This document shows, in pieces, positions 1 through 10,109 of a DNA stretch of 10,109 nt (position 1 is the first letter of the stretch; each line of letters starts with the position of its first letter). The position numbers and the translations under genes are program-made. The notes beneath the pieces were generated by a model. The model saw only the letters and a program-made list of their open reading frames with translations. It made no database searches and was not told the origin of the DNA. The stretch is from a virus (taxonomy: Duplodnaviria; Heunggongvirae; Uroviricota; Caudoviricetes): the IMG/VR virus record IMGVR_UViG_2648501392_000020. One strand, 5' to 3'.

Positions 1-564
1 TCAACGACTGCGCTTAGCGTGGCGCTCCCAGTTTTCTTGCTTCGCCTGCGCCGTTTTACGTAGTGCGACGTAACACGCCCCGCTGCCGCCATGATGCGGT
101 AGCGCGGTGCAATATGCCTGAACATCATCAAATTCGGTCAGCCAGCGCGCCACATAGCTGCGGACAATATTGGCATGCGATTTATCTTCCCGCCCTTTAC
201 CATGAATAATCAGCACATTACGCAAACCATCCGCCAGGGCTTGTTGAATGAAACTGAACACCATTTTGCGGCACTCTTCCACCGGCTGGCGCAAAAGATT
301 CAGGCTCGCCTGTTGCGGATATTTACCACTGCGCAGCTTATCCAGCACCCCATGTTGCAACCCTTCCCGCCGAAACTCCAGCGGCTGACTTAGTGGGATG
401 ATGTCGAGAAATCCGGTGGTGAGGAAATTATCAAGCTGCAGCGTGTCGATACGCTGCGGCGCACGTTGGTTACGCGTTGGATGCCAGTGGACATCGGTAG
501 CACGTTTCAGCGGCTGGACATCTTCCATGGCGTCAAGAAACAGCGATTTGTCGTCAAGGTTCAT
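1..564 (-). CDS. smrA: Smr-domain protein (SmrA/YdaL-like DNA endonuclease), complete, stop at 1-3
   Basis: 187-aa ORF with ATG at 564 and GGAGG 7 nt upstream. C-terminal Smr motif (LIIHGKGREDKSHANIVRSYVARWL). N-terminus MNLDDKSLFLDAMEDVQPLKR matches my recollection of E. coli SmrA, not verified. Confidence 0.75.
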   Translation of the reverse strand: MNLDDKSLFLDAMEDVQPLKRATDVHWHPTRNQRAPQRIDTLQLDNFLTTGFLDIIPLSQPLEFRREGLQHGVLDKLRSGKYPQQASLNLLRQPVEECRKMVFSFIQQALADGLRNVLIIHGKGREDKSHANIVRSYVARWLTEFDDVQAYCTALPHHGGSGACYVALRKTAQAKQENWERHAKRSR

Positions 565-782
565 GTTACATCCTCCCGCAATTAAGAGCGCGATATGATA
601 ACCAGACCGGGTCGGTCCAACAACGTATTACCCAAAATTCCAGTAATAAGTTCCAAATATTGCCGATATTTTAAGCAAAATGCTTATGCATGATTATTCA
701 TTCACGATATTTATAATTAAATGCGCATAACTTATTGAATTTAACCAACAAACATCGCTACAAATAACGTTAAAAATCGCAA

Positions 783-806
783 ATTAACTACACCATTAAC
801 TACACC
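783..806. repeat. Perfect tandem direct repeat, 2 x 12 bp (attaactacacc)
   Basis: Read directly: attaactacacc at 783-794 and again at 795-806, about 220 bp upstream of the smrA start. Confidence 0.5.
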
Positions 807-1297
807 GTTCGGTGCACTGTATGCAACAATGCGGAACAAATAGACACAAGCGACGGGCTATACCGTTATCATTTTCCGGCTATCCGCCATGAAGCTGGTG
901 GATGATCACGGATAAACCGTTATGGAAGTCCCCATATCGGCATCATGCCCACCAGCGAGATTAGTTATCTGGTTGCTGATGGGAGGCTGACGAACCTCGA
1001 TGCTAGGGTGCGCAAAACTAGTGAGACCTTTTTTCTCTGCAACAGGCCCATAATTCGCGTTTTCTTTGTCTGCCGTAAGGTGGGGGATTTTTGGCGGATC
1101 CAGCAATGGCGCGGATTTTGTGATTTTTTATAGATAGACCTCATCTATCAATCCCGTGCACACCTTCCCAAAAAAAGTTTTCGAACCTGCGGCGATGTGA
1201 ACAAGGGTAGGCGGGCGGTCCCATAAGCAATGAGGTGTAGGGATTTCTATCCCCCTGGGGGTATTAAACACCACCCGATTTAAATACCGTCTTTTTT

Positions 1298-1332
1298 GTC
1301 ACTGTGTGTCACTCTCCGTCACGGTATGTCAC
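1298..1332. repeat. Four direct GTCAC repeats at exact 10-bp phase; candidate integrase arm-type sites / island boundary
   Basis: gtcac at 1298, 1308, 1318 and 1328 (tGTCACtgtg tGTCACtctc cGTCACggta tGTCACcaca). Resembles the lambda Int arm-site core (C/AAGTCACTAT). Lies just after the last island ORF. Confidence 0.55.
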
Positions 1333-1338
1333 CACAAG

Positions 1339-1620
1339 TTAACGTCGTAACCGTTCCGGCTTCTTCCAGTGGTAAGTAATTTTTTCTTTCTCTTGGTACA
1401 TCTGCACGCGGCGACGGTACGACAACATCTCCAGAACTCTGGTGCGTATGTTGCGCATATCCACGCCGTTAAGCTCGATACCGTCACGGCGCATCACCTC
1501 AGCAACAACACGCACATAATTTTCAGCGGTCACGCTGTCCGGCTGCGTGGCCTGTTCGTCAGCCTGCTGGCTGATTCCGGTAACGCGGCGGATTAATCGC
1601 AGTATTTCGGCTTCTGTCAT
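1339..1620 (-). CDS. Hypothetical protein, 93 aa, last gene of the packaging cluster
   Basis: ATG at 1620 with a GGGGG Shine-Dalgarno about 5 nt upstream. Protein-like composition. No family recognised. Confidence 0.55.
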   Translation of the reverse strand: MTEAEILRLIRRVTGISQQADEQATQPDSVTAENYVRVVAEVMRRDGIELNGVDMRNIRTRVLEMLSYRRRVQMYQEKEKITYHWKKPERLRR

Positions 1621-1693
1621 TGTGCCCCCATCGCTCTGATAGCCTGGTGTCGTCAGGTCCTTCCTGGAATTATGGCCCGTTACGGGGCGGCGG

Positions 1694-2236
1694 TTACTCG
1701 CCTTTGTTCTGTAGCAACTTCTCAGGCGCGCTTCCGGTAGTTTCCATCAGGTAATCAGCCAGTATCTGTGGCAGGTTTTCGTCAAGTCTTGCACATGCGT
1801 TACATGCTTTGGCTATTTCCCTTTTTAGTTCATCCAGCATATACGGCCTTATATCGGGAAAGCGCCTTTGCATTGTGAGCGGGAGGCTGTCCATGATTGA
1901 TGAAATCTGACTCGCTAGTTTTGAGATCGCGTAGATGCAAAACTTTGTATCAATCACCTCGCCGCGTTCGCGCTCGTTTTTAAGTTCCTGCGCTTCCGCC
2001 TGGGCCGTCATTAATCTGATTCTTACGCGTAAAAGTTCATCATCATCAATCTCGCCTTTGTCGTTTGTAAGCTGGTTAATTGCATTGTTAACCCTATTGT
2101 CTATCACGCTAGCAACATCATAAAACGCCTCACGGCCTTTACGCTCAACGGGAGTTACTCCCCACTTGTCGAACGCTGTCGCACTTACGCGGCAGCTTTG
2201 CGCCATAGTTTTTTTGTTCATCAGGTGCGATTTCAT
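1694..2236 (-). CDS. Terminase small subunit, lambda Nu1-like
   Basis: Translation aligns with lambda Nu1 as I remember it (ours RLMTAQAEAQELKNERERGEVIDTKFCIYAISKLASQISSIMDSLPLTMQRRFPDI vs lambda RLTRAQADAQELKNARDSAEVVETAFCTFVLSRIAGEIASILDGLPLSVQRRFPEL). Start at ATG 2236 has a GTGGGG Shine-Dalgarno; alternative ATG at 2221 gives MNKKT, matching lambda MEVNKK. The cos site lies immediately upstream. Confidence 0.85.
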   Translation of the reverse strand: MKSHLMNKKTMAQSCRVSATAFDKWGVTPVERKGREAFYDVASVIDNRVNNAINQLTNDKGEIDDDELLRVRIRLMTAQAEAQELKNERERGEVIDTKFCIYAISKLASQISSIMDSLPLTMQRRFPDIRPYMLDELKREIAKACNACARLDENLPQILADYLMETTGSAPEKLLQNKGE

Positions 2237-2263
2237 CAATATCCCCACTTAGTTAAGGTTTCA

Positions 2264-2338
2264 GGTTGGTGTGTTGGTGTTATCTTTCCCTTTTTATTCA
2301 TAGAGATAGAGCGAAAAACAAAACCACCACCACCAACC
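2264..2338. repeat. cosB-like region: inverted GGTTGGTG / CACCAACC repeat blocks flanking an AT-rich spacer; candidate TerS-binding elements
   Basis: ggttggtgtgttggtg at 2264-2279 and accaccaccaccaacc at 2323-2338 on the plus strand, between cosN and the terS start. Differs from the lambda sequence at the equivalent position. Confidence 0.45.
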
Positions 2339-2369
2339 CGAAAAGGCTCATAAATAGCGAAAATCCGCA

Positions 2370-2381
2370 AGGTCGCCGCCC
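2370..2381 (-). other. cosN: lambda-type cohesive-end site (GGGCGGCGACCT on the minus strand) within cos region 2250-2437
   Basis: Minus strand reads GATCCGGCAGGCTACG-GGGCGGCGACCT-TGCGGATTTTCGCTATTTATGAGCCTTTT, near-identical to the lambda right end/left end junction as I remember it. Position upstream of the Nu1-like gene mirrors lambda cosN-cosB-Nu1. Confidence 0.85.
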
Positions 2382-2437
2382 CGTAGCCTGCCGGATCGCC
2401 GGAAAGGACCCGCCAGCCAGAACGGGCCCTAATTTCA

Positions 2438-2821
2438 TCAACCAATCAACTTATAGCGACCATCCCGTGCATTGCGACGTACACGCTCAATCTTGAGGCA
2501 TAGCGCCGCATCTGGCTTTTTGGGGACAGGTACGCGGCAATATTCAGAAGCTCGAGGAATATTGTTTATCCAGTCGATCACTTCACTTAAATACCAGGCC
2601 TTACGCCCTTCCGTAACCTGTACGCGTTCGGGGAACTCTCCACGAGCCTCAAGGTTTAGCAATGTGCGACGGCTAAGGGTAGTAAGTTCCATCACCTGAT
2701 TCATATCAACAAGGCGTTCACTTAAACGCCTTTTGTCAGCAATAGCCTTTAATTCCTCTACTGCTGGATCCGGATACATCATTTCGGCAATTGGCTTAAG
2801 GTCATTGTAATGATTCTGCAT
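2438..2821 (-). CDS. AlpA-family (MerR-like HTH, excisionase/regulator type) DNA-binding protein with about 40-aa N-terminal extension
   Basis: ATG at 2821 with AAGGGGGA Shine-Dalgarno, 11 nt after the gpD-like stop. HTH block ELTTLSRRTLLNLEARGEFPERVQVTEGRKAWYLSEVIDWI fits the AlpA/Phage_AlpA pattern. Confidence 0.7.
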   Translation of the reverse strand: MQNHYNDLKPIAEMMYPDPAVEELKAIADKRRLSERLVDMNQVMELTTLSRRTLLNLEARGEFPERVQVTEGRKAWYLSEVIDWINNIPRASEYCRVPVPKKPDAALCLKIERVRRNARDGRYKLIG

Positions 2822-2832
2822 TGCATCCCCCT

Positions 2833-3174
2833 TTACACACGAGCCAGCGGCTGAACAGAAATACCTGAGCCAACAAACGCGGCAACCTTTGCCGACAGTT
2901 CTCTTACAGACTCAGGCCAGTTCAGAGCATCAACATTTAAAACACCTGTCTTATAAACCTGTGCCTGTGTTTTTTTCGCTGTGTCGATTTGTACAGCGGA
3001 AACATAAACCGCTTTGCCTGCGCTCGTTCCATCCCATACCACTAGCGCACCAGTGGCATCTTCCTGCATCAGTGGCGTAAACGCAGGTATTACCCCTTTA
3101 TTGGCTGAAAATATCCCCAGCGTAGTAACCAGTGCTTCAGTGCCAGACATGAGTTCAGTGTAATGAGTAGCCAT
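2833..3174 (-). CDS. Head decoration protein, lambda gpD-like
   Basis: 113 aa. TPLMQEDATGALVVWDGTSAGKAVYVSAVQ...YKTGVLNVDALNWPE...AAFVGSGISV aligns with lambda gpD ([30 protein letters not shown]...YKSGTFRYEDVLWPE...TAFAGTAISIV). GGGGGAG Shine-Dalgarno, 9 nt after the capsid gene stop. Confidence 0.85.
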   Translation of the reverse strand: MATHYTELMSGTEALVTTLGIFSANKGVIPAFTPLMQEDATGALVVWDGTSAGKAVYVSAVQIDTAKKTQAQVYKTGVLNVDALNWPESVRELSAKVAAFVGSGISVQPLARV

Positions 3175-3183
3175 TGCTCCCCC

Positions 3184-4230
3184 TTAGCCAATGCGAACGG
3201 TAACAAAACGATTGATGCGGGCCGGTATTGGCTGTGGTGCTGAATGTGTCTGCACATATTCAATAGCCGGATCACCAGGCACAATATAGTTTTTCGGTGC
3301 AAGTTCGGCTTTAGTCAGCCCCATCCGAATTAGCTCCGGATCCTGAATACCGCCATAAGCGACAATCCCCTGAAGAGCCGTATTGCCAAGCACCATCAAA
3401 TCAGGATCAAGGAAATATTTTTCAGTTCCGTCCTCGTCGGTATAACGCCCGCTGTAAACAACAATCGCAACATCGCCCATATACCCTTTAAAACTCACCG
3501 AATCACCAAGGTCTTTAAGGGCCGTTTCCAGTTCGGAATTAGAACCTCGACGGGTATCCAGAGCCTCTTTTACAGCTCTGAATGAGCGGTATTTTTTCCA
3601 TACATTGCCGCCCATAATAATGATATTAGTGACTCCCTCACTAAATTCTGCGTAGCTCTCAATATCATCATTTGGGTCAAAAGATCCTTTATCCTTACCT
3701 GACCACTCAGCACCGCCAGACTGAGTGATGATATTTTGTGGTTTAATATTCCAGTCCAGCTCATAACGTTCAATACCATCGCCCACAATGATATTTTTCC
3801 CTGTTGTAATTGCCTGAACGGCAAGCCATTCAATACGTGCACGTATAGCTTTAGCCTGATTTACAATCGCCTGTTTAACTTTAATATTACGCGCCCCAAA
3901 AGCATTGTATTGCTCAGGTGATACACCAGCAGGGCGCACAGCTAGCTTATTTGGATCAATGCTGCTTTTCGGTTTCATATAGCCAGGGCGAATTGTTTTT
4001 GATTCGTATCCCTCATCTCGTGAAACTTTACTGCCCACCATAGGAGAGCAAAACGCCGCGATCGGGATATTTGGATCGTCGATCGTATCAAGAATAATGT
4101 CTCTCGATTCAAACATTACCGAGCGAGTGAAAAACAAACTGGTAAACAACGCATTTAATTTTTTTTGCACATCTTCAGCATTAGCCACCTGCACAAGCTG
4201 TGTAGGCGAATATAAATCAACCATACTCAT
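3184..4230 (-). CDS. Major capsid protein, lambda gpE family
   Basis: Long blocks align with lambda gpE (ITQSGGAEWSGKDK...DPNDDIESYA, RSFRAVKEALDTRRGSNSELETALKDLG, GDVAIVVYSG, MVLGNT). Start chosen at ATG 4230 (MSMVDLY, as lambda MSMYTT) with AAGAGG Shine-Dalgarno. The ORF track start at 4311 is an upstream extension. Confidence 0.9.
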   Translation of the reverse strand: MSMVDLYSPTQLVQVANAEDVQKKLNALFTSLFFTRSVMFESRDIILDTIDDPNIPIAAFCSPMVGSKVSRDEGYESKTIRPGYMKPKSSIDPNKLAVRPAGVSPEQYNAFGARNIKVKQAIVNQAKAIRARIEWLAVQAITTGKNIIVGDGIERYELDWNIKPQNIITQSGGAEWSGKDKGSFDPNDDIESYAEFSEGVTNIIIMGGNVWKKYRSFRAVKEALDTRRGSNSELETALKDLGDSVSFKGYMGDVAIVVYSGRYTDEDGTEKYFLDPDLMVLGNTALQGIVAYGGIQDPELIRMGLTKAELAPKNYIVPGDPAIEYVQTHSAPQPIPARINRFVTVRIG

Positions 4231-4396
4231 CCTCTTTACATTCATTACAAATAATTGTGAATATATTCTATTACCGATGTCTGCTATGCGAATACATGCA
4301 ACCAAGTGCAATGTTGTATAAAATCTGCCGTGACAACTTCAGTGCTGATAATTCGTGTTAATGTATTTACTTCCTTTGGTCGGGATTTATGTAGCA

Positions 4397-4433
4397 TGCC
4401 GGAAAATCTATTTTTTTCCGGCATTTTTTGTTT
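4397..4433 (+). terminator. Intrinsic-terminator-like hairpin oriented for the plus strand (10-bp stem, 7-nt loop, then TTTTTTGTTTG)
   Basis: tgccggaaaa (4397-4406) pairs with ttttccggca (4414-4423), followed by a T-run at 4424-4433. On the minus strand the stem is followed by non-U-rich sequence. Confidence 0.5.
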
Positions 4434-4440
4434 GCAGAAT

Positions 4441-4863
4441 TTAAAACGGTATATTATCGCCGTACGGTTCATCATTCCCTGACTGTTGTTTTGCCCTGTT
4501 CAATGCGTCAGTGGCCTGGCCCTGTTGACCTTTTTTGCCGCCCGGTCGCGCCGTTCTGGCACTGATTACACTATCTGCGATAACCTGCCAGCCCTGCCGC
4601 GTTTCGCCGTTCTGGCCTGTCCACTGGCTCACCTGCATGTTACCCGCCACGCTCAGGAGTTCGCCTTTGTGGTGTTTTGCCAGTGCGTCGGCCTGTCTGC
4701 CAAACGCCAGGACAGATAACCACATCGTCGCCGTTCCGTCATCTGCCTGGCTGCACGGCAGGGGAACCGCCATACTCGCCATCGCCATTTGTGTCCCTTT
4801 GCTAGTGGTCTTTAACTGCGGGTCAGCCACCAGCCGCCCGTAAGCCGCTATCTGTGCTGTCAT
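4441..4863 (-). CDS. ssb: Single-stranded DNA-binding protein (SSB)
   Basis: 140 aa. OB-fold SSB pattern (GRLVADPQL...W..V.AFGRQA...KG..L.V.G......W....G..R) and C-terminal acidic tip ending DNIPF (canonical DDDIPF). GGAGAGGTGG Shine-Dalgarno. Confidence 0.85.
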   Translation of the reverse strand: MTAQIAAYGRLVADPQLKTTSKGTQMAMASMAVPLPCSQADDGTATMWLSVLAFGRQADALAKHHKGELLSVAGNMQVSQWTGQNGETRQGWQVIADSVISARTARPGGKKGQQGQATDALNRAKQQSGNDEPYGDNIPF

Positions 4864-5111
4864 GATTCCACCTCTCCGGTTTTAACGTTGATTGTTGTTA
4901 CCTGTTCCGCTTCGGCAATCTCCCGCTCTGTCAGCGTGGCAAAATTTGCCGCCGTCGTGGTCATGAATGCGCTTATCAGTTCGGGATGTGCTTTCGCGTA
5001 TCCTTCTCCGGCGTGGCGGTCTATCGTTCTGATTGCCACCTTTAAGGCGTGCTCTGTCATGTCTAATGCGCGATATTTTGGTGCTGTCTTATCTCTGGTT
5101 TTTCTGGTCAT
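4860..5111 (-). CDS. Hypothetical protein (about 83 aa); start uncertain
   Basis: ORF track frame 4860-5243 begins with GTG inside the iteron array and has no Shine-Dalgarno. Internal ATG at 5111 has AGGTGG upstream and leaves the iterons intergenic. Stop overlaps the ssb start (ATGA). Confidence 0.45.
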   Translation of the reverse strand: MTRKTRDKTAPKYRALDMTEHALKVAIRTIDRHAGEGYAKAHPELISAFMTTTAANFATLTEREIAEAEQVTTINVKTGEVES

Positions 5112-5113
5112 GC

Positions 5114-5325
5114 GCCCACCTGTGCCCACTTTTTCTACCCACTTTTCATGGTTTCCCACTTCGTCCCACCTGGGATTTTGTGGTTTTATATCGTACTGTT
5201 TCATAAGAATTTTTTTAGTGCCCACTTTTTGGGATGTATACACGTGGGAAAGTGGGCGATTTTGTTAAATTCCAGTTAAATTACCCACTATTCCCACTTT
5301 TAACGCCCACTTTTTACAGTGGGTG
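5114..5325. repeat. Iteron cluster (CCCACT(TTT), at least 9 direct and 3 inverted copies); probable island replication origin
   Basis: cccac(t/c) at 5115, 5125, 5138, 5155, 5165, 5221, 5284, 5293 and 5306; inverted agtggg/gtggga at 5244, 5251 and 5318. Lies immediately 3' of the helicase-initiator gene. Confidence 0.7.
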
Positions 5326-6720
5326 AACATCATCCCCATCGACGCAAATCACGCCGTCTTTTTCCAGTTTGGCTAACCATCGTTTAAGGTGTTTTGTGTC
5401 ATATCCCAGCTTTTTCATGTCATCACGTAGCAGCGGGATCGTGCATTTATCACCATGCTGTATACGTGACCGGATACAACCCCATAAAGCCGTGTGATTT
5501 TCCGTCTTGTTCCCGGCCTCCTCTATGCGCTCCAGTTCAGCAGGGGCGCGGGGAACGTCAATCACCACCATGGACACGATTTCTTCACCCTCAGGATCCG
5601 TAAATACCTCCACGCTCTTAAGGTCGTAGGCGCTTTCTTTTGGCTCCTCCGCGTCCTTCATCTTCTTACATGCTGCAACCAGCGCCGTAGCCTCTGAATG
5701 TTCCCGACTGATTCGGAACTCAGCATCAAGCGCCGCACGGAATGCACTGGAACCCCGCGCCCCTTTCGTCTCATCCTTGCCGGAATGATGCACAACCAGA
5801 ACCGTGGCCCCCGTGGCCTGCTTTATCGCGTCACACCCCTGGATAAACGCCCCCATGTCGCGGGAGTCATTTTCATCATGACCACCAAAGCAACGGGCCA
5901 GCGTGTCAATGACAATCATCCGCACCCTTTCGCCCGTTCTGTCCTGCACTAATCCGGCGGTCCTGATAACCTGCTCCACATAGTCAGGCGATGCAGGGAA
6001 GACAGGCGCGTTAACGATGCACAAATCCGTAACCACCTTGTCGTGGGTTATCTCCCACGCCTTAACGCGGCGTTTTACGCCCATACTGCCTTCGCCAGCG
6101 ATATAGATAACCGCGCCCTTACTTACCCTGCGGCCTCCCCATGCCATACCTGTGGCAACATGACACGACCAGGAAATAGCCAGGAACGATTTATAAGAAC
6201 CGCTGGCCCCGTAGGTGCTGCATAATGATTCAGCCGGAATAAGCCCCTTAATTACGTAGCTTTGCTGCGCGTCGAATCCCTCAGAACCCCATGAGATGGG
6301 AAGTGTGATTTTTCGCTTTCCGCCATTCATGACCAGACTTTCCCCGCGTTCCCAGGTTTCTTTAAGTCGGGGTAGTTGCTCGCTCCAGTCCTCCAGTAGT
6401 TCGAAATTCTCTGAAAGTAACCGCGCTTCCCGGACACCTGCGATCGCCAGTTTGGTGGCAATGGTCAGCATCTGCATATCGTCCAGGTTTCCGGCGCGTA
6501 TGACCTTTGCTCTGTATCGTCCTTCATCAACAATCTGTAAATTGTCCAGTTCGCTTAACTGATAACGGCCCAGGTAAACCGGAGGGATGGGATCGCCTGC
6601 TTTTTTGGCCTGTGCAATCATGTAATGTTCTGCAAAGGAGTGAGCATTATCACCCGCAAAAATAACCGCCTCAGTGTGTTTATCTTTCGGTAACAGTTTT
6701 ACGTTCGGTGCCAGTTTCAT
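5314..6720 (-). CDS. RecA-fold replicative helicase / replication initiator (RepA/DnaB-like, AAA_25-type) with C-terminal winged-helix-like domain
   Basis: 468 aa. Walker A GASGSYKS, Walker B-like MIVIDTL, HHSGKD motif. C-terminal basic helical segment (LLRDDMKKLGYDTKHLKRWLAKLEKDG) adjacent to the iterons. AGGGG Shine-Dalgarno. Confidence 0.85.
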   Translation of the reverse strand: MKLAPNVKLLPKDKHTEAVIFAGDNAHSFAEHYMIAQAKKAGDPIPPVYLGRYQLSELDNLQIVDEGRYRAKVIRAGNLDDMQMLTIATKLAIAGVREARLLSENFELLEDWSEQLPRLKETWERGESLVMNGGKRKITLPISWGSEGFDAQQSYVIKGLIPAESLCSTYGASGSYKSFLAISWSCHVATGMAWGGRRVSKGAVIYIAGEGSMGVKRRVKAWEITHDKVVTDLCIVNAPVFPASPDYVEQVIRTAGLVQDRTGERVRMIVIDTLARCFGGHDENDSRDMGAFIQGCDAIKQATGATVLVVHHSGKDETKGARGSSAFRAALDAEFRISREHSEATALVAACKKMKDAEEPKESAYDLKSVEVFTDPEGEEIVSMVVIDVPRAPAELERIEEAGNKTENHTALWGCIRSRIQHGDKCTIPLLRDDMKKLGYDTKHLKRWLAKLEKDGVICVDGDDVHPL

Positions 6721-7016
6721 TTTTTACCCCTGAATCCGTTAATCATGGTTTTCAGCTTCTGGATGTTTGCCCGTGCCCTGGCGTTGCTGGTGGACACGTT
6801 ATGCGGCGCGGTCTGTACCAGAGAAAAATCACGCCGGAACTGATAAACAGGCATCACGCAATCATATTCGTAACCTTCACGGCGGTAGGTTACGCGCCGT
6901 TCTTCCACGCCCTTAATCATTACCGTGCCGCCGTACTGGTCGCGGTAAATATCGCCGCGCGTAAATTTAGGGTGAGTGTTGCCACTGGCAGTTAAGCCAG
7001 AATATTTAAGTTTCAT
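6717..7016 (-). CDS. Hypothetical protein, 99 aa
   Basis: ATG at 7016. Stop overlaps the helicase start by 4 nt (translational coupling). No family recognised. Confidence 0.55.
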   Translation of the reverse strand: MKLKYSGLTASGNTHPKFTRGDIYRDQYGGTVMIKGVEERRVTYRREGYEYDCVMPVYQFRRDFSLVQTAPHNVSTSNARARANIQKLKTMINGFRGKK

Positions 7017-7021
7017 TATTT

Positions 7022-7255
7022 TTATTCTCCGGTGTGCTGTTCTTTATATCTGTCGTGCAATAGATCTATTTCTTGCAGTTCCATTATTACAGGCTCAAGA
7101 AGCGTTATTAATGCTGTGGCAATTCTTGATTTTTGTTTGTCGCGTTCATTGTCGCCAAGTGTTTCAAGCCATATGCGTAATATTTCCATCATGCTTTCAC
7201 TGTGAGAAAGTGCAAGAAATGCGCGGTCTATTGTTTCGAGGTAAATATCACGCAT
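7022..7255 (-). CDS. Hypothetical protein, 77 aa
   Basis: ATG at 7255 preceded by GGTGGGG. The ORF track start at 7267 is GTG. 5-nt gap to the next gene. Confidence 0.5.
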   Translation of the reverse strand: MRDIYLETIDRAFLALSHSESMMEILRIWLETLGDNERDKQKSRIATALITLLEPVIMELQEIDLLHDRYKEQHTGE

Positions 7256-7256
7256 A

Positions 7257-7478
7257 TTAATCCCCACCCGTTGTTTTTCTTAAAACAGTTTCCGTTACGA
7301 AATCAGCATAGTTAGCGGCGATATCAAGAATATTTAGCCCTGTATCCCTATGCTCATCAGTGCAAAGAAAGAAAAAAGCCACCCGCATAATTTCAGATAT
7401 TGACGAAAGCGCATCAGCTGCATTATCAGGAACGCCGGAAAATTCCTGTTTCAGGGAATTAAAACGATCATCACGCAT
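7257..7478 (-). CDS. Hypothetical protein, 73 aa
   Basis: ATG at 7478 with AGGGGGG Shine-Dalgarno. Stop sits 1 nt before the next start. Confidence 0.55.
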   Translation of the reverse strand: MRDDRFNSLKQEFSGVPDNAADALSSISEIMRVAFFFLCTDEHRDTGLNILDIAANYADFVTETVLRKTTGGD

Positions 7479-7836
7479 GTTTACCCCCCTGAATGACCTG
7501 ATAACCGCAACTGGTCAGCAACTCGATAAATTCCGGCAGTGTGCCGAAACAGCAATCATCACGCAGCCGTTCGCAGGATACCTCGACGCCGTTTTCGTAG
7601 TGACTCACCATACATCCGGTAAAATGCAGATCATCATCGTGATGGCTCGTTGACGGCTTAATCAGTCGCGCACGTTCCGCCAGTTCCAGCAATGCTTCAA
7701 CGCTTCCGGCAATTGCACCATCCGGCAGGTGATAATTACGCACTATGCGCCCGTTCTCCACATTGACCAGCAACTGCCCGGTAAATTTCTCGTCAAACTG
7801 AATGCTGTTAAGGTCAGAAATTGACAGGTTATGCAT
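7471..7836 (-). CDS. Hypothetical protein, 121 aa
   Basis: ATG at 7836 with perfect AGGAGG 6 nt upstream. The ORF track start at 7854 lacks a Shine-Dalgarno. 8-nt overlap with the downstream gene. Confidence 0.6.
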   Translation of the reverse strand: MHNLSISDLNSIQFDEKFTGQLLVNVENGRIVRNYHLPDGAIAGSVEALLELAERARLIKPSTSHHDDDLHFTGCMVSHYENGVEVSCERLRDDCCFGTLPEFIELLTSCGYQVIQGGKHA

Positions 7837-8053
7837 GGTGCACCTCCTGCACATCAGCCATGATAATTTTTCCGGCCTTATCCAGTGCCTGATCGGCTTT
7901 TAGCTGCACAAATGCTAAATAATGGAAGATGCATTCTGATTCTCTGGCTGCGTGTTTATGCGCCCTGTCAGCAATAACAGAAATATCAATAAGCGCGTGC
8001 ATCAGCGTAGTGAGCGCGGCGGCTGCTGCGTCCGGTGTGGTTTTATTGCACAT
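7829..8053 (-). CDS. Hypothetical protein, 74 aa
   Basis: ATG at 8053 with GGGGGTAGG upstream. Overlaps neighbours at both ends as part of the coupled operon. Confidence 0.5.
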   Translation of the reverse strand: MCNKTTPDAAAAALTTLMHALIDISVIADRAHKHAARESECIFHYLAFVQLKADQALDKAGKIIMADVQEVHHA

Positions 8054-8249
8054 GGCCTACCCCCTGGCGAATACGGGCAGCGAATACCATCACGCAGCCA
8101 TCAGGAGATTGCTGACGCGCTTCCTGTTCGCTGGTGGCCTCAATGGTAATCACGCGCGGTTGTGCCGTGCTCAGGGCGATAAAACGCCAGATGTATTTAT
8201 TCAGGTTGTACGAGTCCCGCCCTTGCGGGTGTGTGGTATGATTTAACAT
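8043..8249 (-). CDS. Hypothetical protein, 68 aa; first gene of the leftward operon (shares frame with the tail of the 471-codon ORF)
   Basis: Internal ATG at 8249 with GAGGT Shine-Dalgarno 5 nt upstream, about 100 nt downstream of a TTGACA-N17-TAAAGT promoter-like element. Confidence 0.4.
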   Translation of the reverse strand: MLNHTTHPQGRDSYNLNKYIWRFIALSTAQPRVITIEATSEQEARQQSPDGCVMVFAARIRQGVGHVQ

Positions 8250-8347
8250 AGCTACCTCGATACTTTCGCTATCGTTGGTGGTTAGAAGCCCCGTTACTGC
8301 TCCTACAGTGCGGGGTTTCGTCGTTTCTGCACCTTGCATTAACAAGG

Positions 8348-8424
8348 TGTAAGTAACTTTATTTATAGGTGGCTTACATGTCAATGCTTTTATGTAAGAC
8401 TTTTTATGTGTATATTGTCTTACA
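8348..8424. promoter_or_regulatory. Divergent promoter/operator region: leftward promoter (-35 TTGACA 8379-8384, -10 TAAAGT 8356-8361 on minus strand) overlapped by four CTTACA/TGTAAG half-sites
   Basis: Half-sites tgtaag 8348-8353, cttaca 8373-8378, tgtaag 8393-8398, cttaca 8419-8424. Central palindrome CTTACA-N14-TGTAAG covers the -35. A TATATT -10-like hexamer at 8411-8416 faces the plus-strand gene. Confidence 0.5.
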
Positions 8425-8445
8425 CTTTCATTGAGAGGATTACAG

Positions 8446-8751
8446 ATGGCTACAGGTTCAAAAAACGCAAAATCACAATCACTGACAGCTCGGATCCCGC
8501 ATGATGTTATTGAAGGCATGGAATCCGTAAAACTGGACGGTGAAAGCAACGCCGGATTCATCGTAACCGCCATGCGCGGTGAAATCGCCCGCCGCCAGGC
8601 AGAAGGAAGCGGAGAAAACCTCCTGGTTTCTTCGCTCGATGCACTGGCGCAGGTGGAAAAAATCGGAGTCAAAGCAGCCGAGGAGATCGGGCAACTCATC
8701 ACCGTCGCGCGTGAAGAACTCCAGCGTCGCAAGGCCAAAGAGCAGGAGTAA
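8446..8751 (+). CDS. Ribbon-helix-helix-like small DNA-binding protein (candidate island regulator/repressor), 101 aa
   Basis: ATG at 8446 with GAGAGGA Shine-Dalgarno. N-terminal SLTARIPHDVIEGMESVKL...NAGFIVTAMRGEIARRQ fits a strand-helix-helix pattern; the C-terminal half is charged and helical. Composition is clearly more protein-like than the antisense frame. Confidence 0.6.
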   Translation: MATGSKNAKSQSLTARIPHDVIEGMESVKLDGESNAGFIVTAMRGEIARRQAEGSGENLLVSSLDALAQVEKIGVKAAEEIGQLITVAREELQRRKAKEQE

Positions 8752-8808
8752 CCATCACCAGCGCCGTGGTGTGAGTAACTACGGCGCATTGCTATGCAGG
8801 ACAACACA

Positions 8809-8982
8809 ATGACCGATAAAGAATTGACCAAAACATTATCACCGACACGGAAAAGACGGCGCAGAAAGATAGAGCATGAATCAGAAAGATTCGCGCCATG
8901 TGCTTTTGCCCTTGAGCAATTTCTTAAAGAGTACAGGGAAAAGCGCTCATTGCAGGTATGGCAACGAACTGAACCAGACTGA
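8809..8982 (+). CDS. Small basic hypothetical protein (about 57 aa)
   Basis: ATG at 8809 (alternative 8794) with weak AGGA upstream. Lies between the RHH gene and the plus-strand terminator. Lys/Arg/Glu-rich composition. Confidence 0.35.
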   Translation: MTDKELTKTLSPTRKRRRRKIEHESERFAPCAFALEQFLKEYREKRSLQVWQRTEPD

Positions 8983-9061
8983 TTGCATTGCCCACCAGCC
9001 GCAAATGTGGCATTGTTGGCGATGCTCATGCGTTGGGGATAACGTGTAGCTTGTGTCGAGG

Positions 9062-9090
9062 GGCCACCGTAGCGGGTGGCCTTTGTTTTG
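9062..9090 (+). terminator. Intrinsic terminator for the plus-strand RHH operon
   Basis: GGCCACC (9062-9068), loop gtagcg, GGTGGCC (9075-9081), then TTTGTTTTG (9082-9090). Confidence 0.6.
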
Positions 9091-9458
9091 CCTGTTATCC
9101 GGCAATTGTGGCGCTTCGCCACACGGTTGATATAATCCCACTGCTCAGATTCATTTTTTGCGCAGTAGGTTAATTGTTCACAAAGGCGCTCCGGCAACGG
9201 GGCGCTTTTTGTTTTTATTAGTTTGTAGAAACCTGACTCAGAGATAATGCTCATATTCTGATTGCCGTCAGGGGTGTAAGTTAAATTTACTCCCTTTTTA
9301 TCATCAAACATCTGCAACGCTCTGGCGTTAACAATATTGGTTTCACTCCCGCCAGTAAGGCCGGAAATAACCGGAATAATTTCGGCAAAATTTTGCAGAT
9401 TCTGTTTTTCAGGACGAACGAAGCCCCGCCCTTGTTCGGGAGAATATCCAGTATTCAT
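9084..9458 (-). CDS. Bro-N / antirepressor-like ORF, 5' protein-like portion only; the frame stays open to 8043, so the 3' end is undefined
   Basis: ATG at 9458. Segment GNQNMSIISESGFYKLIKTKSAPLPERL resembles the Bro-N core (ISESGLY.LI.RS..P.A). No plus-strand ORF competes in 9180-9458. Downstream, the same frame has Ser/Cys/Arg-rich antisense-like composition. Confidence 0.4.
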
Positions 9459-9510
9459 GGTTAGATCTCTGTATTAGTGGATGGGTGGCGGCTGTGTGCC
9501 GCCAGCCTGA

Positions 9511-9699
9511 TTAGTGAACTGCCTCGCAGCTTTCCTTCCATGCCAGAACTTCGGATAAAGACCAGCCAACGGAACGACCGCCGAGCTTACGCCGTGATGG
9601 GAATTGTCCGGTTTTTTCCAGGCGGTACCGACATGAACGGCTCAGGCCTGTAAGTTGCTGACATTCTTTTTCACGTATAAAGCGATCTGTGCTTAACAC
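9511..9699 (-). CDS. alpA: AlpA-family transcriptional regulator/excisionase-like protein, 62 aa, GTG start
   Basis: HTH block ECQQLTGLSRSCRYRLEKTGQFPSRRKLGGRSVGWSLSEVLAWKE matches the AlpA pattern. GTG at 9699 is preceded by AAAGGGGGA. The upstream ATGs at 9807 and 9867 lack a Shine-Dalgarno and would give an atypically long N-terminus. Confidence 0.65.
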   Translation of the reverse strand: MLSTDRFIREKECQQLTGLSRSCRYRLEKTGQFPSRRKLGGRSVGWSLSEVLAWKESCEAVH

Positions 9700-10109
9700 A
9701 ATTCCCCCTTTGATATTTCTTAAAGAGTTATTTGGTGTCCTATTGTGTTGTGGTGCTTCGGATTGTGTCAGGGTGTTTATGGAATGGCAAACACTGGCGG
9801 CGGTCATTTTACAGAAGTGTGGTAATGAGAATAAAAACTCTTTTAATTCATTGTGGTGCAAAGGCATAAAATTCTGTTTTTACGCCTTTTTTACATGTTT
9901 TTAAGAGTGATTCGCCAATGTACAAAAAGCCAGTAAAACGACTGAAAATCAACTTTTTAGGGTGTCAGTCAGATGTTAATCAAGTTTGTTCCAGATTGTT
10001 CGCCGTTGTTCGTCGTGGTGTCTCGTTGTTTCACGTTGTGTCAGTTCTAAAAAATCGCAAAAAAAATTATATTTCTCTGGCTATTGGCAGTGTGGTTACG
10101 TTTTTGTGA

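Follow-up and report, generated by a model that had tools for sequence, protein, structure and literature searches.

Among Escherichia coli's phage-inducible chromosomal islands (PICIs), EcCICFT073 has been shown to be induced through AlpA in a helper-dependent manner, to excise by means of its integrase (Int), to replicate through its Pri-rep protein and origin (ori), and to be transferred, in dependence on its cos site, by phages lambda and phi80 and by prophage 4 of strain CFT073, with packaged DNA of phage size (PMC6092414, PMC6739421). In that island, the protein RppA hijacks the small terminase subunit (TerS) of the helper phage (PMC6739421), and Rpp homologues are winged-helix proteins of 139–154 amino acids encoded downstream of the island cos (Fillol-Salom et al. 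2019, PMC6739421). Another PICI, the 10.5-kb EcCIEC2733.1, is catalogued at the site 'lysR-smrA' with the attachment (att) core ACATTATTAATATCGTGA (CXXR01000010.1, 90531–101020; Table S1, PMC6092414). Here we analyse the IMG/VR virus record IMGVR_UViG_2648501392_000020, a stretch of 10,109 nucleotides that we refer to throughout as the window, and conclude with high confidence that it carries a classical Gram-negative PICI of the EcCICFT073 lineage, 10,769 bp in full length, inserted at the catalogued lysR(abgR)/mcaS-smrA site. A first-pass annotation of the same sequence had favoured a phage-inducible island over a decayed lambdoid prophage, and this proposal is borne out by the att sites, the core-chromosome flanks, the synteny with EcCICFT073 and the prior listing of the insertion site among those of PICIs. 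The element is thus a mosaic representative of a well-described family and occupies a previously catalogued site; its classification is routine, and its exact boundaries, att core, cos site and origin are now fixed.

Boundaries and attachment site

Full-length matches to the window are present in the chromosomes of E. coli strains Z1323HEC0393, E110019 and O39:NM F8704-2, the first of which differs from it at 3 of 10,109 positions. We used Z1323HEC0393 with 12-kb flanks (locus L001; window position equals L001 position minus 12,000) as the reference for DNA beyond the window, and the body of the integrase gene and the right att site described below are read from this near-identical genome rather than from the source genome of the window itself. 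In Z1323HEC0393 the flanks are core chromosome, with dgcM-smrA on one side and mcaS-abgR-abgAB on the other. The gene for the small RNA McaS (Rfam, 117.6 bits, E = 6e-22) lies beyond the integrase gene and is followed by abgR; it is chromosomal and outside the island.

Strain K-12 provides the empty site, in which smrA and mcaS are adjacent, and this island-free comparison, which the first-pass annotation had called for, yielded both the boundaries and the core. Alignment of the two junctions to K-12 places a 16-bp att core, TCACGATATTWATAAT, at window positions 702–717 and at L001 23471–23486, 10,769 bp apart, with a single occurrence in the empty K-12 site. The left copy (attL, TCACGATATTTATAAT, 702–717) lies 137 nt upstream of the smrA start codon, and the core is the reverse complement of the one given for EcCIEC2733.1 at lysR-smrA. 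The expectation that an attachment core would be found beside smrA was therefore correct; the left end placed at 1290 was not, because the att core sits at 702–717 and the true end lies some 590 bp further left. A tRNA scan of the window detected no tRNA, which excludes a tRNA gene as the att site.

At the other end, extension to the right in Z1323HEC0393 revealed the integrase gene and the second copy of the core. The integrase had been predicted to be missing from the window and to lie just past its right edge, upstream of alpA. Its position is as predicted and the bulk of the gene is indeed outside the window, whereas the last 13 codons and the stop are within it (10067–10109, minus strand; RefSeq coding sequence L001 22067–23296). 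The whole gene occupies the window-equivalent positions 10067–11296 and encodes a tyrosine integrase of 409 amino acids with Pfam domains Arm-DNA-bind_3 and Phage_integrase, the translated tail ending in HKNVTTLPIAREI before the stop. Two findings that had been named as incompatible with an island, namely tail and lysis genes adjoining this region, or the want of an integrase or attachment repeat, did not occur, as the flanks are core chromosome without tail or lysis genes.

Between the left core and the last island gene lies a non-coding att arm (P′ arm, 718–1338) that contains no RefSeq coding sequence and whose four small open reading frames (ORFs) gave zero PHROG matches. Islands at other att sites align with the window only from about position 1340 onwards. 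The att-proximal ~150 nt of the arm are conserved with EcCICFT073 and the O157 island. Within the arm, a tandem pair of the 12-mer ATTAACTACACC (782–807, plus strand) is matched by an identical pair inside the other island end, and these four exact copies are confined to the two ends. The motif is kept at the same relative position in the EcCICFT073 and O157:H7 islands (Int 87% identical, cores different), a pattern from which we suggest that the pairs are probably arm-type binding sites of the integrase.

The same pairs form a 26-nt exact direct repeat, AATTAACTACACCATTAACTACACCG, at window 782–807 and L001 23318–23343 (10,536 bp apart), which we considered as the att core and rejected on the basis of the K-12 empty-site alignment and of the conservation of the motif within islands that have other cores. 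In Table S1 of Fillol-Salom 2018, the reverse complement of this repeat is the sequence entered for EcCIDI14 under 'att site core'. Because the motif is internal here, in EcCICFT073 and in the O157 island, the published EcCIDI14 core, and perhaps similar tandem-repeat 'cores' at yejM, may be arm sites rather than crossover sites.

The insertion splits the upstream region common to two divergent genes (window 565–717; L001 23471–23656), and the att core lies 74 nt upstream of the 5′ end of the McaS small RNA gene; the insertion could alter the regulation of smrA or mcaS. Some 4 kb beyond the island in Z1323HEC0393, abgT is disrupted by an IS3-family element (L001 27539–30378).

Gene content and replication module

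We compared the island with the PICI criteria of Fillol-Salom et al. 2018. A tyrosine integrase gene lies at one end, and the element is flanked by a specific att site, catalogued among the attC sites of PICIs rather than a prophage site; alpA is next to int and co-oriented with the rest of the island; and a dedicated replication module has its iteron origin immediately 3′ of the initiator gene. At 10,769 bp, the island falls within the range of ~8–15 kb and holds no full set of phage structural and lysis genes. Transcription is essentially unidirectional, the only annotated genes on the plus strand being those at 8446–8751 and 8809–8982, both of which have counterparts in EcCICFT073, and the near-exclusive minus-strand packing reported earlier is accordingly upheld. 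The packaging determinant consists of a lambda-type cosQ/cosN and a TerS of the Nu1 family. Helper-dependent induction, high-frequency transfer and interference with the helper, which also belong to these criteria, are on record for the homologue EcCICFT073 only. Each component listed in the first-pass annotation (AlpA, a replication initiator with iterons, a single-stranded DNA-binding protein (SSB), cos, terS and capsid genes) is present.

No ORF is annotated by Pfam, PHROG or RefSeq as a portal, large terminase subunit (TerL), protease, tail or lysis gene, and the element is therefore neither a capsid-forming PICI (cf-PICI) nor a prophage. Of the gene set that defines cf-PICIs, TerL, HNH, portal, head maturation protease and head–tail connector genes are all absent from these annotations. 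Nor is the packaging gene of the Rpp type, since the gene downstream of cos encodes a Nu1-type TerS of 180 amino acids.

AlpA (62 amino acids; 9511–9699, minus strand; Pfam PF05930 (Phage_AlpA), E = 2.7e-18) would, by analogy, be the activator/excisionase adjacent to int; a role for AlpA in induction has been shown experimentally in EcCICFT073 (PMC6092414). The replication initiator is a RepA-family helicase of 468 amino acids (5314–6720, minus strand; Pfam AAA_25, E = 6e-43; phrog_2850, E = 4e-183) that is 62% identical to RepA of the O157 island and resembles Pri-rep of EcCICFT073 in its N-terminal 130 residues only (45% identity). Directly 3′ of its gene, the origin (5115–5312, minus strand) comprises nine ARGTGGG iterons, one of them inverted, in two clusters around an A/T-rich spacer. 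Twelve copies of the heptamer are present in the window, where 2.2 would be expected, and 9 of them lie within 5115–5312; none of 200 shuffled sequences contained as many as 12.

Over six islands (window 5115–5312; L004 11980–12300; and the equivalent segments of L006, L007, L008 and L009), the iteron sequence co-varies with the rep allele, and the layout of the origin (iterons, A/T-rich spacer with an inverted copy, iterons) is kept. The iteron is AAGTGGG in the island in the window, AAGTGAGG in the KSC1031 and O157 islands, AAGTGGGG in the island of strain 90-9280 and GGTAGAC/T in the EcCICFT073 and Nissle islands. The SSB (4441–4863, minus strand; Pfam SSB, E = 1.6e-15) completes the module. 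The ratio of non-synonymous to synonymous substitution rates (dN/dS) is 0.07 for SSB and 0.17–0.19 for RepA, indicating purifying selection on both.

Packaging module and proposed life cycle

The island TerS (180 amino acids; 1694–2236, minus strand; Pfam Phage_Nu1, E = 9e-24; phrog_57, E = 9e-53) occupies the position that rppA has in EcCICFT073. The protein is a full-length Nu1-type TerS that aligns with lambda Nu1 from residue 3 to residue 180 of the 181 in Nu1, at 37% identity, and the alignment therefore covers the C-terminal region to which Murialdo & Feiss assigned TerL binding and which Rpp proteins lack (PMC9026076). BLASTP detected no similarity between the island TerS and RppA, and a PDB sequence search for an Rpp relative returned none for TerS and, for the 127-residue AlpA-like protein described below, AlpA (8c3t) alone. 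The best phage match to TerS is gp1 of N15 (47.6%), and none of 50,697 phage records is more than 60% identical to the island TerS, capsid protein or RepA.

The cosN sequence GGGCGGCGACCT (2370–2381, minus strand) is identical to the lambda cohesive-end site, and the ~35 nt on either side are near-identical in lambda and in cos1 of EcCICFT073, a site shown by experiment to function. Upstream of cosN, the block at the cosQ position, GGGTCCTTTCCGGC (2398–2411, minus strand), is identical in EcCICFT073 cos1; its identification as cosQ follows Murialdo & Feiss (PMC9026076). A cosB-like region (2259–2343, minus strand) was recognized by sequence analysis as an inverted repeat, TTTCGGGTTGGTG and CACCAACCTGAAA, around an A/T-rich spacer, the 13-nt arms being 92% complementary and 59 nt apart. 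The TerS-type islands of Nissle 1917 (EcN) and O157 share this repeat, which is different in the Rpp-type EcCICFT073 and in lambda; in the islands compared, cosB type co-varies with the presence of TerS versus Rpp, and we propose the repeat arms as the predicted binding sites of the island TerS. An Rfam match to mir-3910 here (2258–2344, minus strand; 30.7 bits against a gathering threshold of 95) was dismissed as a spurious product of the inverted repeat.

Directly upstream of cos lies a gene for a second AlpA-family winged-helix protein of 127 amino acids (2438–2821, minus strand; Pfam Phage_AlpA, E = 1.4e-8; phrog_2790, E = 2e-47; PDB 8c3t AlpA, E = 2e-10), where the EcCICFT073, O157 and Nissle islands have a hypothetical protein of 137 residues. 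The 127-residue protein has no similarity to the 137-residue protein of CFT073 or to RppA, and might act in late regulation, in excision or as an accessory to packaging.

At 80% coverage or more, the module of TerS and cos is present in 762 of 5426 complete E. coli genomes (~14%), and the two further copies that we inspected (O157:H7 and Nissle 1917) both lie in PICI contexts. Hijacking of helper TerS by Rpp, the published mechanism for E. coli cos PICIs, cannot apply to this module.

We propose a life cycle in which the first three steps draw on close homologues in EcCICFT073 and the fourth on sequence only. During lytic growth of a lambdoid cos helper, alpA would be switched on; AlpA would activate the leftward operon and, together with Int, excise the island by recombination at TCACGATATTWATAAT. 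The RepA helicase and the island SSB would then replicate the circle from the AAGTGGG iteron origin to give concatemers. The island TerS may next bind the island cosB and bring a gpA-type TerL of the helper to the lambda-identical cosN, such that island concatemers, and not helper DNA, would be packaged into heads and tails made by the helper. A tetramer of the island measures 43.1 kb, or 89% of the lambda genome, compared with 67% for a trimer and 111% for a pentamer. The classical packaging window of lambda is roughly 75–105%, and as trimer and pentamer fall outside it, only the tetramer fits lambda-sized heads. Matches to a lambda-type cos were obtained in 4676 of 5426 E. coli genomes. There are five such places in F8704-2 and three in E110019, in both of which the island is ~100% identical; candidate helpers are therefore at hand.

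Several points weigh against this account. The sequences of int and attR come from a near-identical genome rather than from the window. Frameshifts occur in sister copies, in SSB of strain 90-9280 (L009 6242–6666) and in the long alpA-proximal ORF, which is split in KSC1031 (L008 9515–10943), so that individual copies can be defective. In the non-subscription literature, we found no experimental work on this element or on TerS-type E. coli cos PICIs. TerS is predicted, from the DNA and protein sequences, to bind the inverted repeat and to interact with a helper TerL, and independence from the helper TerS is likewise a prediction, given that EcCICFT073 needs the helper protein, which is essential for it (PMC6739421).

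Capsid and decoration genes

Two genes for lambda-family head proteins lie between the SSB gene and the AlpA-like gene upstream of cos. The major capsid protein (346 amino acids; 3184–4224, minus strand; lambda gpE family; Pfam Phage_cap_E, E = 1e-40; phrog_29, E = 8e-89) is 42% identical to lambda E, and the head decoration protein (2833–3174, minus strand; lambda gpD family; Pfam HDPD, E = 4.6e-15) is 40% identical to lambda D. Their order, E then D, is the reverse of that in lambda. Compared with two sister islands, the capsid gene shows ~30 synonymous and 6–7 non-synonymous differences (dN/dS 0.05–0.065) and is therefore a maintained protein-coding gene.

This maintenance raises the question of whether the two proteins act in the head. 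Genes for a capsid (c1499) and a decoration protein (c1500) were noted previously in EcCICFT073, and deletion of either left transfer and interference unchanged, with packaged DNA of phage size (PMC6092414). We consider it doubtful, at best, that the proteins have a role in building or resizing a shell. A fuller form of this idea, to which we assign a similarly low probability, is that the island carries a semi-autonomous head module: its own capsid and decoration proteins would build or co-assemble the shell, which might be of reduced size, and island DNA would be guided into it by the island's own TerS. Such an element would take only portal, protease/scaffold, TerL and tails from its helper and would be intermediate between classical and capsid-forming PICIs. 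The intact and strongly selected capsid gene is in keeping with this proposal, as is the absence of any phage relative of more than 60% identity to the capsid, decoration and TerS lineages among the 50,697 records; the E-then-D order argues against recent passive capture, and Ccm, a capsid homologue, redirects the capsid size of SaPIbov5 according to work cited in PMC6092414. The proposal is opposed by the EcCICFT073 deletions, which affected neither transfer nor interference and left all packaged DNA phage-sized (PMC6092414), and by the lack of portal, protease, scaffold and head-completion genes in the island. Apart from those deletions of 2018, we found nothing on the role of PICI capsid genes in the literature searched, which did not extend to subscription-only papers. 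That these genes are under strong purifying selection here, yet dispensable for transfer in the model island, is an unexplained contrast.

Mobility and other origins

We next weigh whether the element, while a PICI by descent, is a defective or domesticated island that is immobile in this lineage and kept for another purpose, for example interference with lambdoid phages. Islands occupy the smrA-mcaS junction in only 67 of 5426 complete E. coli genomes, and 15 genomes share at least 80% of the window; this scarcity at the junction would suit a loss of mobility, as would the occasional frameshifts in sister copies and the want of a demonstrated helper. All genes, both att cores and the arm repeats are nonetheless intact in this copy. 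Near-identical copies, with at most a few differences per 10 kb, are found in three differently designated strains and, together with mosaic relatives at other att sites, indicate ongoing mobility. On balance, we judge immobility to be unlikely and prefer to regard the island as a classical PICI.

Descent by decay from a lambdoid prophage that retained Nu1, E, D and cos is very hard to sustain. It would account for the lambda-family character of the capsid, decoration and TerS proteins and of cos, but the intact att sites are 10.8 kb apart and flanked by core genes (smrA/dgcM and mcaS/abgR), the proteins are only 37–42% identical to those of lambda, and the gene order (E-D-alpA-like-cos-terS) is unlike that of lambda (cos-Nu1-A-W-B-C-Nu3-D-E). 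Moreover, hundreds of genomes share this compact arrangement, and it occupies several different att sites; its int, alpA and rep modules are of the PICI type and its genes are under purifying selection.

A P4-like satellite of P2-type helpers, suggested by the integrase with an arm-binding domain, AlpA, the Icd-like/eta-like layout and the size of ~11 kb, can be set aside as scarcely credible, since psu, delta, sid, epsilon and the P4 alpha primase-helicase are not among the Pfam or PHROG matches of any ORF, cos is of the lambda type rather than the P2/P4 type, the replicase is of the RepA/AAA_25 type, and no C4/isrK (CI RNA) match was obtained with Rfam.

Regulatory region and small genes

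Directly downstream of alpA, an uninterrupted ORF of 471 codons (8043–9458, minus strand) has an Icd-like C terminus and a weakly Bro-N/anti-repressor-like N terminus. The C-terminal 68–90 residues are annotated separately as the Icd-like gene 8043–8249, and NF033153 matches residues 422–465 (E = 2e-18); PHROG anti-repressor families match residues 49–88 (E = 6e-5 to 5e-3), and the Pfam Bro-N match (E = 0.09) is below threshold. In both EcCICFT073 and the 90-9280 island the frame is uninterrupted despite a very divergent stretch of 100 codons and an in-frame deletion of 42 codons, with an overall dN/dS of ~0.85; its middle is antisense to the YlcI/YnfO-like gene. RefSeq annotation of the 8043–9458 region varies between strains. 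The layout resembles, by analogy, the P4 eta/kil arrangement described for the PICI 'Bro zone' by Mageeney and co-workers (PMC10111431).

The antisense gene (8446–8751, plus strand) encodes a YlcI/YnfO-family protein of 101 amino acids (NF041551, E = 7e-20; phrog_6522, E = 2e-57) that is a candidate regulator; a dN/dS of 0.09 relative to the copy in KSC1031 indicates purifying selection. The second plus-strand gene (8809–8982) encodes a hypothetical protein of 57 residues (RefSeq coding sequence; phrog_21027, E = 1e-15) and is followed by two strong hairpins resembling intrinsic terminators (9059–9084 and 9182–9209). A sigma-70-like promoter, TTGACA-17-TAAAGT, is present on the minus strand at 8384–8356. 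About 300 nt (~8259–8558) are very divergent between islands (dS 0.8–1.4), with nearly identical sequence on both sides; the segment takes in the divergent promoter region and the 5′ third of the YlcI-like gene, up to ~8558, and looks like a swapped module of immunity or regulatory specificity. An Rfam search of the alpA-icd region for immunity RNAs of the P4/P1 type (C4, isrK) gave no match, even at E ≤ 10, and the match to McaS is the one genuine RNA match obtained.

The remaining genes are small and all on the minus strand. A DUF4222 protein (6717–7016; Pfam, E = 1.6e-24) is encoded next to repA, and four small overlapping genes (7022–7255, 7257–7478, 7471–7836 and 7829–8053; RefSeq coding sequences) fall into PHROG families without an assigned function (E = 1e-28 to 1e-44), with Pfam and PADLOC searches of the four returning nothing. 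Between the origin and the SSB gene lies a gene for a conserved hypothetical protein of 83 residues (4860–5111; phrog_1231, E = 7.5e-51), and the last island gene encodes a conserved protein of 93 residues (1339–1620; phrog_1561, E = 5e-56). A PADLOC search for defence cargo among ten small or uncharacterized proteins detected none.

Comparison with known systems

EcCIEC2733.1, compared here by its Table S1 entry alone, shares the insertion site and, as the reverse complement, the core, and is of similar size (10.5 versus 10.8 kb); it may be the same element or a mosaic relative, and the rep and immunity-like modules vary among the islands at the lysR-smrA site.

EcCICFT073 has the same gene order: int, alpA, the opposite-strand YlcI-like gene, the Icd-like gene, small ORFs, DUF4222, the replicase and ori, then a small ORF, SSB, capsid, decoration, one further gene, cos, the gene for packaging specificity and the 93-residue gene. 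Identity is 54–97% in 10 of 13 compared genes, with AlpA and the Icd-like protein at 97%, DUF4222 at 95%, Int at 87%, the 93-residue protein at 86%, the 83-residue protein at 75%, SSB at 69%, capsid (c1499) at 55% and decoration (c1500) at 54%. The two islands also share cosQ/cosN and the integrase arm motif. They differ in att site (ycfD-phoQ, core GGACATATTT, in EcCICFT073), in cosB and in replication, EcCICFT073 encoding a Pri-rep primase of 584 residues with GGTAGAC iterons and the island in the window a RepA helicase of 468 residues with AAGTGGG iterons. EcCICFT073 further carries perC and the 137-residue hypothetical protein, whereas the island in the window lacks perC and encodes the 127-residue AlpA-like protein instead. 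Downstream of cos, EcCICFT073 has RppA (c1503, 144 residues), and the island in the window the unrelated Nu1-type TerS of 180 residues.

The PICIs of O157:H7 (at roxA-phoQ) and Nissle 1917 (at yejM/tRNA-Pro) share this TerS lineage (85–86% identity), the cosB type and the layout capsid-decoration-X-cos-terS-93-residue gene, and the O157 island also has a RepA-type replicase. Their integrases and att sites are different, their capsid proteins are only 55% identical to that described here, and they have the 137-residue hypothetical protein in place of the AlpA-like one; the O157 island also carries perC. Capsid-forming PICIs (EcCIEDL933; Alqurainy et al., preprint 10.1101/2022.09.08.507074) share the int/alpA/rep backbone, a capsid protein and TerS, and differ in encoding TerL, HNH, portal, protease and head–tail connectors, genes without counterparts in the present island, and in making small capsids of their own.

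The wider interest of the element, which we rate as low to moderate overall, rests on its common TerS-type packaging module and its unexplained capsid genes. As the module occurs in ~14% of complete E. coli genomes, O157:H7 and Nissle 1917 among them, and lies outside the published Rpp mechanism, it offers a direct test of the proposal by Murialdo and Feiss that recruitment of TerL is the main reason why PICI packaging requires TerS. A parallel in logic is seen in the pac-type Staphylococcus aureus pathogenicity islands (SaPIs), in which a satellite-encoded TerS pairs with the helper large terminase and recognizes satellite DNA only (Ubeda 2007; Ram 2012, as cited in PMC6739421). The SaPIs use headful (pac) rather than cos packaging and unrelated proteins, and add Ppi to block the phage TerS, of which no homologue was identified in the present island. 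A speculative generalization, in which we place little confidence, is that in TerS-type cos PICIs the island TerS and its matched cosB would recruit the helper TerL and render the helper TerS dispensable, with the capsid and decoration proteins possibly contributing to the shell or its resizing. If the latter were true, the element would stand between classical and capsid-forming PICIs; if the former, recruitment of helper TerL by the island's own TerS would be a packaging strategy not yet described for Gram-negative satellites, and the opposite of that of Rpp.

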